A model generated the notes under the pieces. The model was not told where the DNA came from. It saw only the letters and a program-made list of their open reading frames with translations, and searched no databases. Position numbers and translations under genes: made by a program. A DNA stretch of 64,000 bases from Clostridia bacterium. Its GTDB lineage: Bacteria > Bacillota > Clostridia > Lachnospirales > Anaerotignaceae. Of the stretch, positions 9,095-16,118 are shown one piece after another. Numbering within the stretch: the stretch's first letter is position 1; each line of letters starts with the position of its first letter. The DNA lies in assembly GCA_022786605.1 (NCBI GenBank), contig JALFWW010000018.1, forward strand, positions 7,558 through 71,557, in the 5' to 3' direction.

Positions 9095-12000
9095 TTAATT
9101 CAGTTTCAGATACTGTGCCCAGTCACGATCAGGCAGAACGTCTGTCCATGTTTCATAAACACCGTCTTTGTCCTTTTCGTATTCATGGCTGCTGGTCGCT
9201 TCCTGGATTGCCAGATAGTACCATGCAGTTGTATCCATGTTGTCAGGGAACACATTCATATCTTCATGCAGCGCGTCCGCATCTTCAGGCAGACGATTCA
9301 GCACACGGTTGATCATAGTCACCGCTTCCGCACGGGTAATGTAACGGTCGGGACCAAATGTGCCGTCGGGATAACCGCTGATCCAGCCTTTTTCTGCCGC
9401 ACGGTTGATCTGGTTTGCTGCCCAGTGACCGTCAATATCGCTGAACAGGTTTTCGCCGCTGTAGCCTTCGCTGTCAAAACGTGCCGCGATAGCCGCGAAT
9501 TCCGCACGGGTGATATAAGCGTTGGGATCAAAGCTGTTGTTATCTCTGCCGTATACGATATCCATATCGTACATGGTGGATACAGCCACATTGAACCAAT
9601 CGTCTGTAAATACGTCGTTGAAAGGATTCTGATCTGTCAGATTCTTTTCTCTGACATCATCCTGCAGCAGACGGAAGAAGATGGACGCTACTTCCGCACG
9701 GGTGATGTTGCGTTCGGGATGAACCAGACCATCGGAGTAACCAACCACATAATCAAAGTGATCGTCACCGTTCAATGCTTCCGGTGTTTTGTCGGGTTTA
9801 TTGTTGGGTTTGTGACTGCCGCCGCCACCGGAACCGCCGCCATTGTCTTTCACAAAGACAGCTTTCAGTACAGCACCGGGGATGTCACTTTCATCCATTT
9901 CATACTTGTCCACAGCGCCCAGATTCTTTGTTTCTTTGCCGATGGTAACTTCTACTCTGTCCAGTTTCCAGCCATCGGCTGCTTCCATTTTGAATTTCTG
10001 TTTGTCAACGCCATAAGGAATTTCTACAACTTGTGTTTCATTTGCACCAATGGTATCCACGTCTTTTACAACGACCTTACCCTTCCCCTCAACAATGACT
10101 GTCATCAGGTGTTCTGTTGTACTGCCGCCGCCTTTGACTTCATAAGTCAATTTAGGCACAGGGAATGTTTCGGTGCTGCCTACTGTACCATTGGAATCCA
10201 CAGGTGTCAGAGTGGCTACTACGTTGGTTTTTACGATGTATGTGCCTTTTGTTGTCTGAGGATTTGTCAAGTGTACATCGTAGGAGAACTGCACAGGGGC
10301 AAAGTTGCTGACAGGCACATTGATGTCCCAAACAAAATGTTCACGGGTTTCGCCGTCTGCGTCAGCCACACCTTCGGGATAATAGGTTACAACAAAATCG
10401 TAACGACCATCTGCTGTTGCACCTTTGAAGAAACCATAAGTGGTGCTTCCTTCAGGAAGTTCAGCAGATTTAATTTCTTCTTTATTCAGTGTTACTTTAT
10501 TCTCATATTTACCAACAGTAATGGTCATATTTTTCAGATTTACAACATCAAAGTTGTAGTCATTGCCCTTATTGTCTTTGCCCTGACCGATGATGTCGAC
10601 AACCTGAGAGCCTTTAGCCAGCAGGTAGTAAATGTCATTCTGGATATCATCAAAACTTACTTCTTTACCATCTGCCAGATAGGTCATAAAAGCATGACCC
10701 CAAGGATGATCTTGAACACTAGTATTTCCTAATACCGCATAGCAATGGTATTTTTCACTCAATTCGTGGTACAGTTTTGCTGTTTTATACAGTGCAACGT
10801 CGACCGTAGTGGGAAGCACTGTATTACCTTTTGGAATGTGATTATTTTTATCCATACCCTCATAAGGCTGAATATATTCTTCCACTGCACTATAATGATT
10901 TTCTACATCCTGTAAATAGGTATTCCAATTACTAGGAATAAACTGATCTCCACCCTCTAAGTAATGACGGATGCTCCAGCAGTCAGGTCCAGCCATAATT
11001 TGATTTTCACCATTTGTTGCCTGCTGAGAATTGATGGCCTGAGCAGGTTCATCAAACATATAGGTGATACCGTCGCTGACAAAAATCACATGTTTTCTGC
11101 TGTCTTCTACATCTGTATCCGCAACCAGCATTTTCTGTGCTGCCAAAAGACCCGCATGGGTATTGGTGCCGCTGGAGATTTTCTGTGTGATTGCAGCTTC
11201 AATATCATCATACTCGGTTACCAAATCTTTCCATTCAGTTACATGTGTTTCTTTGTTGAAGATTACAACGCCAACTTTTACGGTTGCTCCATCTTCTTCT
11301 GCTTTCTTCTGCAGGTCTTTCAGCATATCCAGTGCCTGTGTTTCCACAGTATTGCTTGTGGATTTATCCAGTACGAATACCACATCAGAAACCAGTTCTT
11401 CTTGCGCGGAAGGCAGAGAAAGGGTCACTGTGGAGTTGTAATTGCTGTCCAGTGGTGTTGCTTCTTTATTCTTGGAATGATCCCATGTAGGAGGTTCGGG
11501 GGGATCAACAGGGTCTTTTTCTGTCAAAACGCCGTCCAGATGGAAAGCGGGCTGCAGTTCTTCATCATTTGCGTTTACTTTGTAGCTTGCGCCGATGTAG
11601 CTGAGTTTCTGCCATGTGAAATCATAATTTTCATTGGTGTATGTATTGTTACCGATTTTGAAGATAAATTCTGTGACATTCCCGCTTTCATCCATTGTCC
11701 ATTCGCTGCCTGTTCCGACAGGTGCGCTGGAAACTACGTCATAATCTTCATGGGTGCCCAGTGGTTTCAACTGATTCCAGTTTTCAATCTGCTTCTGGGC
11801 AGCCTCACCTGTATAAGCCTGTTCTGTACTGGTGCCTGCTATTACTTTTGCGCCAGTTGCCAGATAGGAATAATCTTCGGGATTTTCTGTTACATCACCG
11901 TCTGTATAATTCAGTACATACAGGAATACAGGCAGTTTTTCTTCCGGTTCTGTGGGGTCAACAGGACCGCCGAATGCCCATACCGCATAGACAGTTACAG

Positions 12001-13486
12001 GAACATCTGCAACATCAACTTCTTGGATGATTGTACCTTCCGGTACTTCGTTTGCGGAGTTAAAAATATTTGTCTGGGTTGTACTCCATCCCCGGAATTC
12101 AACTTTTTTATCGCCCTCAGGAGCATGGGTAGGACCTTCTGTTTTCAGGGTTGCTGGAGCATTTTTCGGTACATTTACAACTACATTGCTACCTTCGCCA
12201 CCATTTGCGTCATAGGTCAGTGTAACTGTATCTGCTCCAGTGCCTGGAATGATAACAGTAGGATCACCAATCTGTTCCTTTGGAATTGTCTGATCATGAT
12301 CGTTAGAATCTTTATATTTCAAAGTAACATCCTTATTTGTTTTATACTCTGTATCCTGTTCAGATGTCACAATGGGTTTCACTTTAAATGTTGCAGTAGC
12401 TGTTTCTGCTGGAATATCACCAATTTCCCATGTTACCACACCATTTTTTACAGAAATTGTTCCTGTTTGAGTTTCTGCACTACCTTCTACATACTCGAAA
12501 GCATCTGTATTGATGACATCGGTCATGACAGCACCTTTACCAGCAGACACTGTATTGATTTCTCCTGCCCATTTTTTCAGAAGTTCTTCCAATTCAGATG
12601 CATAATTTGCGCCTGTTACATTCTGGTAGTGGTTATCACTTGCCAAGCTTTCCAAATAGTCATCTGCTTCATTATCCAATGCAATCCCGATGGTATACAG
12701 CTGATAGCCTGCGGCTTTGATTGCTTCCGCCTGTTCGGAACCATCCCAATTGGGATCACCAATGGAACTACCCTGCTTACCAGGCGCACCATCGGAAATG
12801 AATACAACATAGCCGGGGCGAGTTTGATCTTCTCTGTCATTCAGCATACTATAAGCTTCCTGCAGTGCAGAAGTATAGTCTGTACCACCGTCAGCATTCA
12901 TTGCATTCAATGTATTCTCTACAGCTGCAACATCTTTTGTCAAATCCTGCCGTTGACGAATGGCATCTACAGATTCGAACCAATCCCGCTGTGTATGCGC
13001 AAAGCCAATCACTGCCATCTGGTTATCATTTTCGCCAGACAGAATGCTGTCAGCAAAGGTCTTACCAACTTTTTTTGCTGTATCAATTCTGGGTTCTTTT
13101 CCTTTTTCCCCGGTACAAGATTTAGGTACAAGCCAACCAGTTAAACCTTGATAATATCTTGCTCCGCATTCAGGGCATTCTACCAAGCCCCAACCTGCAC
13201 TTTTAAATTCAGAACTAGGGGTTTTACAAGGTTCCCCAACACTGGATGCCATACTGCCGGAGTTATCCACCACCAGTACCACATCCGCTTTGGAAGCGGT
13301 AGACTGTGTCACAGGATCGCCCTGTACCGTCATGGTGATTGTGACTTCACCAGTGTTTTCGTTATACGTTGCTGTTTTAGACGCTGTCACATCCCCTTCC
13401 TTCGCCATTGCCGTCACAGGCAACAAGCCGCACAGCATGACGAATGTCAACAGGAAGCTCAGCGTCCGCTTCACTTTGTTTCTCAT
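9095..13486 (-). CDS. large SLH-anchored adhesin with two vWA modules and a Listeria/Bacteroides-type repeat
   Basis: Signal peptide; VVLVVDNSGS and VVFVLDKSTS MIDAS motifs; TLTYDANGG...FRGWS...VTVYAVW repeat; three C-terminal SLH repeats (ITRAE x3). Confidence 0.88.
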   Translation of the reverse strand: MRNKVKRTLSFLLTFVMLCGLLPVTAMAKEGDVTASKTATYNENTGEVTITMTVQGDPVTQSTASKADVVLVVDNSGSMASSVGEPCKTPSSEFKSAGWGLVECPECGARYYQGLTGWLVPKSCTGEKGKEPRIDTAKKVGKTFADSILSGENDNQMAVIGFAHTQRDWFESVDAIRQRQDLTKDVAAVENTLNAMNADGGTDYTSALQEAYSMLNDREDQTRPGYVVFISDGAPGKQGSSIGDPNWDGSEQAEAIKAAGYQLYTIGIALDNEADDYLESLASDNHYQNVTGANYASELEELLKKWAGEINTVSAGKGAVMTDVINTDAFEYVEGSAETQTGTISVKNGVVTWEIGDIPAETATATFKVKPIVTSEQDTEYKTNKDVTLKYKDSNDHDQTIPKEQIGDPTVIIPGTGADTVTLTYDANGGEGSNVVVNVPKNAPATLKTEGPTHAPEGDKKVEFRGWSTTQTNIFNSANEVPEGTIIQEVDVADVPVTVYAVWAFGGPVDPTEPEEKLPVFLYVLNYTDGDVTENPEDYSYLATGAKVIAGTSTEQAYTGEAAQKQIENWNQLKPLGTHEDYDVVSSAPVGTGSEWTMDESGNVTEFIFKIGNNTYTNENYDFTWQKLSYIGASYKVNANDEELQPAFHLDGVLTEKDPVDPPEPPTWDHSKNKEATPLDSNYNSTVTLSLPSAQEELVSDVVFVLDKSTSNTVETQALDMLKDLQKKAEEDGATVKVGVVIFNKETHVTEWKDLVTEYDDIEAAITQKISSGTNTHAGLLAAQKMLVADTDVEDSRKHVIFVSDGITYMFDEPAQAINSQQATNGENQIMAGPDCWSIRHYLEGGDQFIPSNWNTYLQDVENHYSAVEEYIQPYEGMDKNNHIPKGNTVLPTTVDVALYKTAKLYHELSEKYHCYAVLGNTSVQDHPWGHAFMTYLADGKEVSFDDIQNDIYYLLAKGSQVVDIIGQGKDNKGNDYNFDVVNLKNMTITVGKYENKVTLNKEEIKSAELPEGSTTYGFFKGATADGRYDFVVTYYPEGVADADGETREHFVWDINVPVSNFAPVQFSYDVHLTNPQTTKGTYIVKTNVVATLTPVDSNGTVGSTETFPVPKLTYEVKGGGSTTEHLMTVIVEGKGKVVVKDVDTIGANETQVVEIPYGVDKQKFKMEAADGWKLDRVEVTIGKETKNLGAVDKYEMDESDIPGAVLKAVFVKDNGGGSGGGGSHKPNNKPDKTPEALNGDDHFDYVVGYSDGLVHPERNITRAEVASIFFRLLQDDVREKNLTDQNPFNDVFTDDWFNVAVSTMYDMDIVYGRDNNSFDPNAYITRAEFAAIAARFDSEGYSGENLFSDIDGHWAANQINRAAEKGWISGYPDGTFGPDRYITRAEAVTMINRVLNRLPEDADALHEDMNVFPDNMDTTAWYYLAIQEATSSHEYEKDKDGVYETWTDVLPDRDWAQYLKLN

Positions 13487-13559
13487 TCTCTCACTCCTTC
13501 TTCATTTATGGTGCAGCAATGGTCCTGCACCCACGCCCCGCATCCATAGGCAGGGCTTC

Positions 13560-13616
13560 TCACACAAACACTGTTCTGTCCAAGCAAATGGCATGCTCAG
13601 ACACATTTCTTTTCAC
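13560..13616 (-). CDS. putative 18-aa leader peptide upstream of the adhesin
   Basis: AGAGGAGG RBS then GTG-KRNVSEHAICLDRTVFV-TGA, followed by two hairpins before the adhesin RBS. Confidence 0.35.
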   Translation of the reverse strand: MKRNVSEHAICLDRTVFV

Positions 13617-13846
13617 TTCTCTCCTCCTCTCTTCGAAAACAAGCGCCCCTTTCATGTATACAGAAAACAAAAACATGCCTCCCGTCATATTCTTTCTAGA
13701 GTCGCTTCCTGCTTCTTCTTGCCGATTGTCATCTTTGGTATGGGCTTCCTTTTCTGTCAGGAAAACCATGTATCAAGACAGGATTTCGTTAACAGAAAAC
13801 ATGCGCTGTATCTGTCAACAGTTCCTGATCTTATCGCTTGTTTGCC

Positions 13847-14656
13847 TTATTGCTGTTCCCAGCCTGTCATCATTTCCTCTGCCTCTAAAAGCTTGTCATA
13901 ATACTGCAAAAGCAGCATTGCCACATTATCCTGCAGCTGGGTCTGGGTTTGTTCGTAAAGTCTGAGCAGACATCTTGGATTTGCCTTTTCCGGCGCCACA
14001 TCCGCTATGTGGCACAGCTGCTTCATGGCTGCGTTGACGGTGATACGATGGATGTCCGTTCCTTTTTGCGAACGGAAGATACGCCCTTCTAAAATGTCAT
14101 TGCGCTTGCAGTAATCCAGCAATTCCCGCTGAAAGGTCTTGGGGATGGCAATTTTCCGTTCCTGCCCATTGCTGTGAAAAACGCCGCTGCCTTTTTTCAC
14201 AATATTCACTGTCAGTTCCGGCAGTTCCCAAATATGTAAACCCAAAACACAAATGGACTTGATGATAAAATAAAGCTGTTCTTTTTTCTGCTGTTTTGCC
14301 GCCTGCAGCAGACGAATATACTCGCTGCGCTGCAATACTGTCTGGGCGGTATCCTCCAAAGGCACACAGGACACCTGCCAGTTCCTTTCTCCCATAAATT
14401 CCAGATACTGATTCACCACTGCCAGCCTGCGATTGATGGTGCGTACTGCCAGAACCCCTTCCTGCTGCATGGCAGATTTCCACTCCTGGAGCGTATTTTT
14501 TCGAATCATGTCATCCGGCAAAAAATCATGCTGGAATTTCAATAAAATCCGGCGGTATTCCGCAATGGTCTCCGCTTTATTGCCGGCGTCTGTTTTTTCC
14601 TGTAAAAATGCTTCTATGCTTTCTCGCGTAAATTTGATTTCTTCCATATTTCTCAC
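13847..14656 (-). CDS. tyrosine-recombinase-like protein lacking catalytic residues
   Basis: Clear paralogue of 14941-15789 (LQRSEYIRLLQAAKQQKKEQLYFIIKSIC vs LTRAEYSRLVRTAERKGKERLSLLIQTIC); GLHIWEL replaces GIRVSEL, ANPRCLLRLY replaces VFPHNLRHLF, no LGH/TTxxY motif; ORF intact. Confidence 0.8.
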   Translation of the reverse strand: MRNMEEIKFTRESIEAFLQEKTDAGNKAETIAEYRRILLKFQHDFLPDDMIRKNTLQEWKSAMQQEGVLAVRTINRRLAVVNQYLEFMGERNWQVSCVPLEDTAQTVLQRSEYIRLLQAAKQQKKEQLYFIIKSICVLGLHIWELPELTVNIVKKGSGVFHSNGQERKIAIPKTFQRELLDYCKRNDILEGRIFRSQKGTDIHRITVNAAMKQLCHIADVAPEKANPRCLLRLYEQTQTQLQDNVAMLLLQYYDKLLEAEEMMTGWEQQ

Positions 14657-14756
14657 TCGTTATAACGAAATTCCCCTTCTGTCATACTTTTTTACGAAGA
14701 ATCGAAAAAAATCTAGGGATCGGTTCTCCGCGTCTTCTTTTTTCCACGTAAAAATT

Positions 14757-14828
14757 AAAAAAACATCAAAATAAAGCCGAAAATATATTTTTTTTGCAAA
14801 AATTATCGTTTCGGTTTTATTTTGATGT
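14757..14828 (-). terminator. hairpin plus U-tract inside the inverton
   Basis: ACATCAAAATAAAGCCGAAA (14763-14782) pairs with TTTCGGTTTTATTTTGATGT (14809-14828), 19/20; followed by a T-run on the minus strand; loop is long (26 nt). Confidence 0.55.
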
Positions 14829-14834
14829 CATCAC

Positions 14835-14863
14835 TTGCTATCGTATGTAAAAAGTGTTATATT
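14835..14863 (+). promoter_or_regulatory. sigma70 promoter inside the inverton, currently facing away from the adhesin
   Basis: TTGCTA (14835-14840), 17 bp, TATATT (14858-14863) with extended -10 TG at 14855-14856. Confidence 0.7.
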
Positions 14864-14940
14864 TGAAATGTAATACTTTCGTATTTTATATGATTATATA
14901 TGTGATACAATCTGATTTTTATGACAGAAGGGGAATTCTG

Positions 14941-15789
14941 TTATAGAACGAGGCCCATGCGTTCCAGTTTCTGACGATGGACGCGCCCGCTTTCCATAAT
15001 ATAGATTCTTGTGGTTTCAATATTGCTGTGTCCCAGCATATCCGCCAGTTTTGCAATATCTTTATCCAGACTGTAAAAAATCCGCGCAAACAGATGGCGC
15101 AGGTTGTGTGGGAATACTTTCTTGGGATTCACCTCTGCATCTTTGCAGAGTTTTTTCATTTCTGCCCAAATATTCCCCCGATGCAGGGGGCGTCCGCTTC
15201 TTGTAACAAATAAAATGCCTTTGGAAATACCGTTCTTTGCCGCATAGGCCTTCAGTTTTTTCTGCAGACGGACCGGCAGAAAAATCACCCGTCGTTTTCC
15301 CTTGCAATTGACTTCCGCTCTGCCCCGTTTGACTGCCTCCAATGTGATGAACTGCAGTTCAGAAACACGTATGCCTGTGGCACAGATGGTCTGTATCAGC
15401 AGGGAAAGACGTTCTTTGCCCTTTCTTTCCGCTGTACGCACCAGTCTGCTGTATTCTGCCCGTGTCAGTTCTTTTTCTTCACTGATAAATATTTCTTTTT
15501 GAATTTTCAATAACTTCATACGCAGATCATGTCTGCCCAAAAACGCAAACAGTCCATTGGCTGCCACCAATTTTCCATTGACCCCTGCGGGGCTGTATGT
15601 TTTTTCCAAATTTTCTTTCCATAACAGCAGGTCTTCTTTTCTGACTTCTTTTCCTGCCAGAAATTGTTCCAGCTCCCGCAGTTCTCTTGCGTATTTCTCT
15701 AAAGTTCCTTTGCTTTTCTCCTGTATTCTCAAAAACTGTAAATAAGATACTACGATATTTTTCGTCACAACGATCTGTTCCATCGTCAA
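14941..15789 (-). CDS. tyrosine recombinase (probable invertase)
   Basis: Complete catalytic set: TGIRVSEL (R), CKGKRR (K), PHNLRH (HxxR), LGH, TTRIY (Y); stop codon lies in the outer arm of the right site. Confidence 0.92.
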   Translation of the reverse strand: MTMEQIVVTKNIVVSYLQFLRIQEKSKGTLEKYARELRELEQFLAGKEVRKEDLLLWKENLEKTYSPAGVNGKLVAANGLFAFLGRHDLRMKLLKIQKEIFISEEKELTRAEYSRLVRTAERKGKERLSLLIQTICATGIRVSELQFITLEAVKRGRAEVNCKGKRRVIFLPVRLQKKLKAYAAKNGISKGILFVTRSGRPLHRGNIWAEMKKLCKDAEVNPKKVFPHNLRHLFARIFYSLDKDIAKLADMLGHSNIETTRIYIMESGRVHRQKLERMGLVL

Positions 15790-16118
15790 CCCTCCTTTTC
15801 TTTTCTACTTCTATTTTGGTACTTTTTCAGAAAAATACACAGGTATTTTTTCAAAAAAAACACCAAATATCAATTTTTACAGAAGATATCAGAAAAAATT
15901 TTCTATAAATATCACAATATAGAAAGTCATTTCCATTCATGGCAGGATACGGAAGCCCTCAACCTTCCCAATCAAAAAAGCGGAGTTTGCCGCCGTCCTG
16001 TAACATCACGCAAACTCCGCTTGATTCATCTTCTACTATTCTATTTTCCCCCAGCTTTTCTCCGGTTTTCCGCCAAATAGAACGCCCCTGTTTCTTCTTA
16101 TCCCCATTTTTGGCATAT

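Follow-up and report, generated by a model that had tools for sequence, protein, structure and literature searches.

How a DNA-inversion switch might be tuned by a recombinase relative that has lost its chemistry is the question raised by a locus of a pig-gut Anaerotignum bacterium with a 2.26-Mb genome. The locus lies in a stretch of 64,000 nucleotides (nt) from GenBank assembly GCA_022786605.1 (contig JALFWW010000018.1, positions 7,558 to 71,557 of the forward strand), referred to here as the window, whose positions are used throughout. A preliminary description, made from the letters alone, had placed four co-oriented parts in series: an intact tyrosine recombinase, a segment of about 285 base pairs (bp) bounded by inverted recombinase-type sites and holding a promoter, an intact open reading frame (ORF) for a paralogous recombinase without catalytic residues and a vWA-SLH surface adhesin of 1463 amino acids (aa). 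All four are present on the minus strand, at or a few bases from the positions given there, and the identity of each was borne out by domain, residue, repeat and promoter analyses. The segment occurs in both orientations in public assemblies, and the paralogue, which lacks the catalytic residues and is the first gene behind it, belongs to a conserved family that recurs next to such segments in gut Clostridia.

The invertible segment and its two orientations

The segment is framed by inverted arms of 26 nt each that are 92% complementary and lie 233 nt apart, giving a whole element of 285 bp. Each arm forms a core with a 10-6-10 arrangement, in which 10-nt half-sites of the form TATrACAGAA flank an asymmetric 6-nt spacer (TTCCCC or GGGGAA); within a core, the outer half-site is slightly different in sequence from the inner one. 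The spacers of the two cores are oppositely oriented, which is the geometry required for inversion. Exact matches to the 17-nt core occur at these two places only in the whole genome, and a search within the window for a third repeat copy downstream of the adhesin found none.

We compared ten public contigs, all encoding a downstream paralogue protein identical to that of the window. Three of them carry the segment as in the window (L098, an NCBI assembly, L101 and L103), and six carry the full 233 nt reversed between unchanged flanks (L096, L097, L099, L100, L102 and L104). The tenth, L105, starts at the junction expected for the ON form only, so that the switch of the window is found ON in seven of the ten. 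L096 and L098 are colinear over 4.8 kb at 97.6% identity, with 300 nt including the repeats matching in reverse (97.3%), and the inverted stretch is bounded exactly by the repeats. Two mismatched outer repeat positions remain with the flanks in this pair, which places strand exchange inside the core. In the inverted contigs, the promoter faces the paralogue and lies about 70 nt upstream of the right core site. Related loci behave alike: L048 and L053 share flanks of 94-95% identity around a 256-nt segment that is 91% identical in reverse, and the pairs L039/L061, L042/L093 and L045/L051 likewise differ by a clean inversion of the segment. The invertible element put forward in the preliminary description thus exists in both orientations at this very locus, and we are close to certain that the segment is a real inverton.

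Inside the segment, a promoter scan recognized an extended -10 promoter that, in the window, faces the 3' end of the recombinase gene and points away from the cargo. The neighboring long hairpin is followed by a T-run on the gene strand only, the opposite orientation lacking a U-run, and it looks like an intrinsic terminator in the present orientation alone. Aligning seven loci of the Anaerotignum type showed conservation of the repeats, of the promoter and of the T-run hairpin against drift in the remaining segment; the promoter was the best-conserved block, invariant across all seven, and the hairpin also recurs in related loci. An Rfam search of positions 13300-16100 returned chance-level microRNA matches on the hairpin only. 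The copy in the window appears to be the OFF state, because its promoter points away from the cargo and its predicted terminator points in.

Public sequencing runs, compared as assembled contigs, gave contigs continuous through the locus in the window orientation in three cases. In run X16, from an independent pig-gut study, both repeats coincide with contig breaks, and a 293-nt contig of its own spans 14661-14949 only, a hint at mixed orientations, although X16 shows other strain-level breaks too; the comparison of public runs with the locus reported no joint. Another hint comes from the scaffold of the isolate A. lactatifermentans DSM 14214, in which an N-run links two contigs whose ends fall exactly within the two cores. 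Both this scaffold (L016) and L105 start within or just before the right core site.

In L016, the recombinase gene is placed beyond the end of the adhesin gene and on the opposite strand, which taken at face value would be a large inversion; we rejected this reading in favor of a scaffold join across the N-run. Just downstream of the adhesin gene of this scaffold, the start of an IS200/IS605-type transposase gene (L016:5780-6014) enters the N gap, on the other side of which lies the contig with the recombinase. As a separate observation, the metagenome contigs L027, L037, L044, L062, L063, L068, L079 and L105 start about 30-215 nt upstream of a paralogue, which is where assemblies would break if both orientations coexist.

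The recombinase and its paralogue

The ORF at 14941-15789 matches the Pfam family Phage_integrase with an E value of 4e-25 and carries an N-terminal SAM-like domain (PF02899). Translation probably begins at the ATG at 15783, which is preceded by GGAGG, and the resulting gene of 280 aa is likewise called in public contigs; its stop codon falls within the left core site. The active-site set R, K, H, R, H and Y is complete, with each residue kept in 38-39 of 39 relatives, and the enzyme is predicted to be catalytically active. We infer that it catalyzes the flip and call it the invertase. Its closest solved structures are those of XerA/XerD. It nevertheless appears to be Xer-like and not a Xer orthologue, because it scores below the curated equivalog cut-offs (127 bits against 220 for XerA and 108 against 330 for XerD); the NCBIfam 'tyrosine-type DNA invertase' models give it just 19-23 bits.

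The paralogue is read from ORF 13847-14656, with a probable start at the ATG at 14647, and is 28% identical to the invertase (E value 5e-34). It is full-length, yet has no match to PF00589 at E <= 0.01; Pfam recognizes the N-terminal domain only, and no NCBIfam model reaches its cut-off. Comparison of 39 invertases with 53 paralogues revealed the loss of the active-site set: the first Arg is kept in 39 invertases and 8 paralogues, the Lys in 39 and 6, the first His in 39 and none, the second Arg in 38 and 31, the second His in 38 and none, and the Tyr in 38 and 1. Judged by these residues, the paralogue should be catalytically dead.

An AlphaFold model of the paralogue (predicted local distance difference test score, pLDDT, 88.7) keeps both recombinase domains but has one C-terminal helix of 38 residues in place of the region that normally bears the last His and the Tyr. 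A Foldseek search with this model matched XerA (E value 8e-9), lambda Int, Tn1549 Int and XerH (template modeling, TM, scores of 0.5-0.6), XerD and also SroF bound to DNA (PDB 9rd5; E value 7e-4, TM 0.53), suggesting that the two-domain recombinase fold is retained. Against orthologues, the ratio of nonsynonymous to synonymous substitution rates (dN/dS) was 0.07-0.14 for the paralogue and 0.09-0.10 for the invertase. The reading frame is intact throughout the paralogue family, whose members share invariant residues peculiar to them and a conserved motif or helix at the C terminus. By these measures, the protein appears to be under purifying selection and not decaying. In a maximum-likelihood tree, one branch with 100/99 support splits the 53 paralogues from the 39 invertases, which points to one old duplication giving rise to a paralogue clade that is sister to the invertases. 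Paralogues evolve faster than invertases, as seen from their longer branches.

Recurrence in gut Clostridia and the cargo genes

We collected 64 relatives of the paralogue at 30-100% identity, and a scan of species-representative genomes found 180 places encoding a relative, mostly behind a recombinase gene and inverted repeats and ahead of genes for surface proteins or polysaccharides. For 80 of these places, the hosts are Anaerotignum, Oscillospiraceae, Lachnospiraceae, Butyricicoccus, Acetatifactor, Oscillibacter, Lawsonibacter and Agathobaculum. Often a genome holds several paralogue loci, and some metagenome-assembled genomes (MAGs) hold five or more. Neighborhoods were counted at 64 loci having at least 1.3 kb of upstream sequence. 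An active recombinase gene lies directly upstream on the same strand in 48 of them, and in 37 of those 48 a clear repeat pair (12-28 nt, enclosing 204-347 nt) fills the gap between recombinase and paralogue. The gene order that the preliminary description had proposed looking for in Clostridia genomes therefore recurs. The layout is beyond chance, since it is found at these related loci and twice more in the host genome itself, and the architecture appears to be common to a large family of loci in gut Clostridia and not unique to the window.

The sequence of the repeats varies between lineages around a shared pattern of ACAGAA, six bases and TTCTGT. Throughout the family, one repeat has an extended -10 promoter 25-50 nt away; the direction of this promoter in the assemblies is OFF in 26 cases, ON in 9 and unclear in 12. 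The hairpin opposes the promoter in 16 of the 17 clear OFF or ON loci at which a hairpin is predicted on one strand only. Two kinds of cargo follow. One consists of giant surface proteins with SLH, VWA or Listeria-Bacteroides repeats, pilin-like SpaA/Cna_B/thioester domains or BspA-type LRR; the other consists of envelope polysaccharide genes, namely glycosyltransferases, rhamnose-pathway enzymes and ABC-2 exporters.

The host genome holds three switches of this design, two of which include a dead paralogue. On contig C21 (L014:3010-9099), a recombinase gene, 27-nt repeats 235 nt apart and a paralogue 57% identical to that of the window precede the gene for a 1382-aa beta-helix/SLH protein. 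On contig C5 (L015:2898-8926), a recombinase gene and perfect 20-nt repeats 254 nt apart precede the gene for a 1630-aa DUF285/LRR/SLH protein, without a paralogue. Cargo proteins homologous to the adhesin are found behind sister switches. No inversion of C21 or C5 was seen among ten public contigs each, all in the OFF-like orientation, and this uniformity speaks neither for nor against their activity.

A derivative of the C21 type is found in an Anaerotignum MAG (L020:3091-3640). It has lost both the recombinase gene and the left site and retains the right one in degenerate form, while the promoter half of its segment is turned round to face an intact paralogue and the gene for an SLH protein. 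By its sequence, it would be a natural locked-ON derivative.

The C21 module of the host also has a third perfect 14-nt copy of its core inside the recombinase gene (L014:3366-3379), a direct repeat of the right site that is absent from the orthologous loci L021 and L023. This copy could permit a deletion or an alternative inversion that disrupts the recombinase gene.

Behind the switch of the window, the Pfam search confirmed an adhesin with two VWA domains, a GBS104-like Ig domain and SLH repeats (Table 1). No terminator, promoter or known RNA family was recognized by the scans and by Rfam in the 360-nt leader that separates it from the paralogue; the leader has a moderately stable predicted fold (z -3.5) and is about 78% conserved in orthologous loci. 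In most other family members, the gap between paralogue and cargo is less than 100 nt. A 69-aa ORF within the leader (13560-13769), called in some contigs, was rejected as spurious, as it is not conserved in orthologous loci. That the switch gates both the paralogue and the adhesin seems likely to us.

Compared with L016-L019 and L097/L099, the adhesin gene is a mosaic, varying among strains and species, whose ends align at 80-86% and whose center is unalignable or about 76% identical, with products of 1105 to 1478 aa. This pattern suggests that cargo modules may be exchanged behind a stable switch.

Table 1. Positions of the switch components and the genes around them in the window
Feature	Position	Strand	Description
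Adhesin (surface protein)	9095-13486	-	1463 aa; signal peptide, two VWA, GBS104-like Ig, three C-terminal SLH
Spacer/leader between paralogue and adhesin	13487-13846	-	360 nt
Recombinase paralogue, predicted catalytically dead	13847-14647	-	266 aa; first gene behind the switch; ORF 13847-14656
Right (paralogue-proximal) core site	14661-14686		spacer GGGGAA; 14 nt upstream of the paralogue ATG
Invertible inner segment	14687-14919		233 nt; reversed in public contigs
Long hairpin followed by T-run	14750-14828	- (gene strand)	arms 14763-14793 and 14798-14828
Predicted extended -10 promoter	14835-14863	+	TTGCTA-17-TATATT with upstream TG (promoter scan)
Left (recombinase-proximal) core site	14920-14945		10-nt half-site, spacer TTCCCC, 10-nt half-site
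Xer-like tyrosine recombinase (invertase)	14941-15783	-	280 aa; PF00589 and PF02899; catalytic residues complete
Hairpin with T-run inside the recombinase gene	15133-15160	+ (antisense)	about 270 nt downstream of the OFF-state promoter

Possible roles of the paralogue and related switches

As an overall explanation, we moderately favor a fim-like phase-variation switch in which the paralogue, made in the ON state, binds the core sites and alters the ON-to-OFF step. The invertase would recombine the two inverted cores and flip the 233-nt segment between them. In the OFF orientation, the extended -10 promoter would fire antisense into the recombinase gene, away from the cargo, and the hairpin with its T-run would block read-through from that gene. 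In the ON orientation, the promoter would transcribe the paralogue and then, by way of the leader, the adhesin, so that the paralogue would be made in ON cells only. It is probably absent from OFF cells, because its gene is behind the switch and the scan recognized no separate promoter for it; if so, OFF-to-ON flips work without it, and it would act only on the ON state or in trans. The core sites are proposed as its target because they are the only conserved elements nearby besides the promoter and the terminator, and it may bind them in the ON state with its two-domain fold, without chemistry. Whether it covers half-sites or joins the invertase in mixed complexes that are unproductive, the paralogue could then alter the ON-to-OFF step, creating an orientation-dependent feedback. 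The OFF-state promoter, in turn, would yield an antisense RNA over the 3' end of the invertase gene. The hairpin with T-run inside that gene, which close orthologues retain, whereas L022 has a different hairpin and C21-type loci a weak one, possibly ends such an RNA, an indication that is suggestive only. Both orientations may hence each feed back on the invertase. Considered by itself, the proposal that the paralogue modulates the switch is plausible, with our judgment falling slightly on the doubtful side.

Several observations weigh against this explanation. About 16 of the 64 loci have a paralogue without an adjacent recombinase, and some of these also lack inverted repeats; L020 keeps an intact paralogue despite the loss of its recombinase gene and left site. 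Such recombinase-less loci and L020 are explained by a function in expressing the cargo no less well than by one in switching. The C5 switch lacks a paralogue altogether, so the machine does not require one, and the long gap in front of the adhesin could hide an unrecognized promoter or a regulatory leader. The main rival, which we consider unlikely though far from negligible, draws on the recombinase-less loci, L020 and C5: the paralogue would be a transcription regulator, an integrase-fold DNA binder akin to MrpR and SroF, which is made in ON cells and either aids expression of the long cargo or acts in trans on other switch-controlled surface loci, setting a hierarchy as UpxZ does in Bacteroides capsule loci. 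The cargo is always a giant surface protein or a polysaccharide operon, and such genes often need dedicated elongation or cross-regulation factors (UpxY/UpxZ, RfaH). The number of modules per genome, three here and more in some MAGs, would suit cross-regulation. The fold matches include DNA-bound SroF, and both MrpR and SroF are dead integrase-fold repressors (PMC10516654; 10.1101/2025.11.27.690993). The relation to these repressors is at the level of the fold only, however, and the aligned switch regions show no conserved operator beyond the core sites, promoter and terminator.

Alternatively, the paralogue might be an obligatory structural partner, forming with the invertase a mixed tetramer, comparable to XerC/XerD, of which only one type of subunit cleaves; inversion in at least one direction would need this complex. 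Tyrosine recombinases do act as tetramers, the two genes are kept side by side at three-quarters of the counted loci and the slight differences between outer and inner half-sites would suit two kinds of subunit. A single catalytic partner would, however, exchange one strand pair only and leave a Holliday junction; moreover, the paralogue should be missing from OFF cells, yet both states are seen and OFF-to-ON flips must occur. The paralogue-free C5 switch has a recombinase of the same clade, which also argues against an obligatory partner, though C5 showed no inversion among its contigs. We regard this reading as very unlikely. Even less probable is a decaying, functionless duplicate behind a switch that simply controls the adhesin. 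The lost catalytic residues and the faster evolution on longer branches would be expected of it, but a frame that is intact in dozens of genomes from several Clostridia families, the low dN/dS, the family's own invariant residues and C-terminal helix and the single ancient origin all oppose it, and conservation brings it close to refuted.

Within the fim-like explanation, a more specific version, which we put forward only tentatively, casts the paralogue as a new type of recombination directionality or memory factor derived from the invertase itself: produced in ON cells only and acting on the cores or poisoning invertase tetramers, it would let the ON state set its own lifetime, in a circuit shared by hundreds of surface-protein and polysaccharide switches of gut Lachnospiraceae, Oscillospiraceae and Anaerotignaceae. 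Sister switches whose half-sites are nearly identical, for example those of the C13 and C21 modules in the host genome, could be further targets in trans.

In E. coli, the promoter-bearing fimS segment is flipped by the adjacent tyrosine recombinases FimB and FimE and gates an adhesin operon. The locus described here resembles it in having a promoter segment of about 300 bp, short inverted repeats, an adjacent tyrosine recombinase and a surface adhesin, and in tying one recombinase-family gene to orientation, as in the orientational control of fimE. FimE is catalytically active and encoded upstream of fimS, whereas the paralogue is predicted to be dead and lies downstream as the first ON gene; each core at the present locus is a full 10-6-10 site, and the invertase is of a Xer-like and not a FimB-like type. 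The cwpV and flgB switches of C. difficile share the Clostridia class, a tyrosine recombinase (RecV), a short inverton, terminator logic in one orientation and a position ahead of the gene for a cell-wall protein. RecV acts on many switches from a gene located elsewhere in the genome, and we know of no promoter-plus-terminator cassette of the present design and no dead paralogue among them. In Bacteroides capsule loci, an invertible promoter is likewise followed by small regulatory genes and then by genes for a surface structure, with several loci per genome. Their first genes, UpxY and UpxZ, encode NusG-like antiterminators and their inhibitors, which, unlike the paralogue, are not recombinase derivatives, and the main invertase, Mpi, is a serine recombinase encoded elsewhere.

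Clostridia invertons with a neighboring tyrosine invertase have been cataloged as inverton group 139 and invertase group 35, and sequencing reads of Clostridium sp. D5 and Intestinimonas showed them flipping (PMC11892184). They share with the present locus a Clostridia host, a similar geometry (theirs being repeats of 14-26 nt around about 205-227 nt), surface-related cargo and an adjacent tyrosine recombinase that the promoter cannot regulate; the words 'catalytic', 'inactive' and 'paralog' are absent from the text of that study, so that the dead paralogue is apparently not described there. MrpR (YopR) and SroF are repressors of SPbeta-like phages with a tyrosine-recombinase fold that have lost recombination (PMC10516654; 10.1101/2025.11.27.690993). 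Like the paralogue, they are recombination-dead integrase folds, and they bind DNA sequence-specifically; they differ in governing phage lysis-lysogeny, with no inversion switch and no active paralogue beside them, and the comparison is by fold only. The preliminary description had called the layout unfamiliar among characterized switches. In agreement, we found no description of it, and no dead or inactive recombinase paralogue in inversion switches, in the literature searched, the coverage of which is partial and constitutes no proof of novelty. The switch itself is of a known kind, comparable to fimS, the RecV switches and the Clostridia group 139/35; what appears to be new is the family of paralogues and the way it is wired.

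Invertible promoters are a main route of surface variation in gut bacteria, and, to our knowledge, little is known outside E. coli fim about how the direction and rate of switching are set. The family described here places a conserved protein, derived from an invertase and apparently devoid of its chemistry, ahead of genes for adhesins and pilin-like proteins, and of cell-wall polysaccharide operons, in many gut Clostridia, wired such that it would be produced in the ON state only. The question of its function is directly testable, because the same module is found in Anaerotignum lactatifermentans DSM 14214, a relative available in culture. If the paralogue is a transcription factor, it would represent a second, independent domestication of the recombinase fold after MrpR and SroF; if it tunes the switch, it would embody a new feedback principle in DNA-inversion switches and may provide a compact part for synthetic memory circuits.

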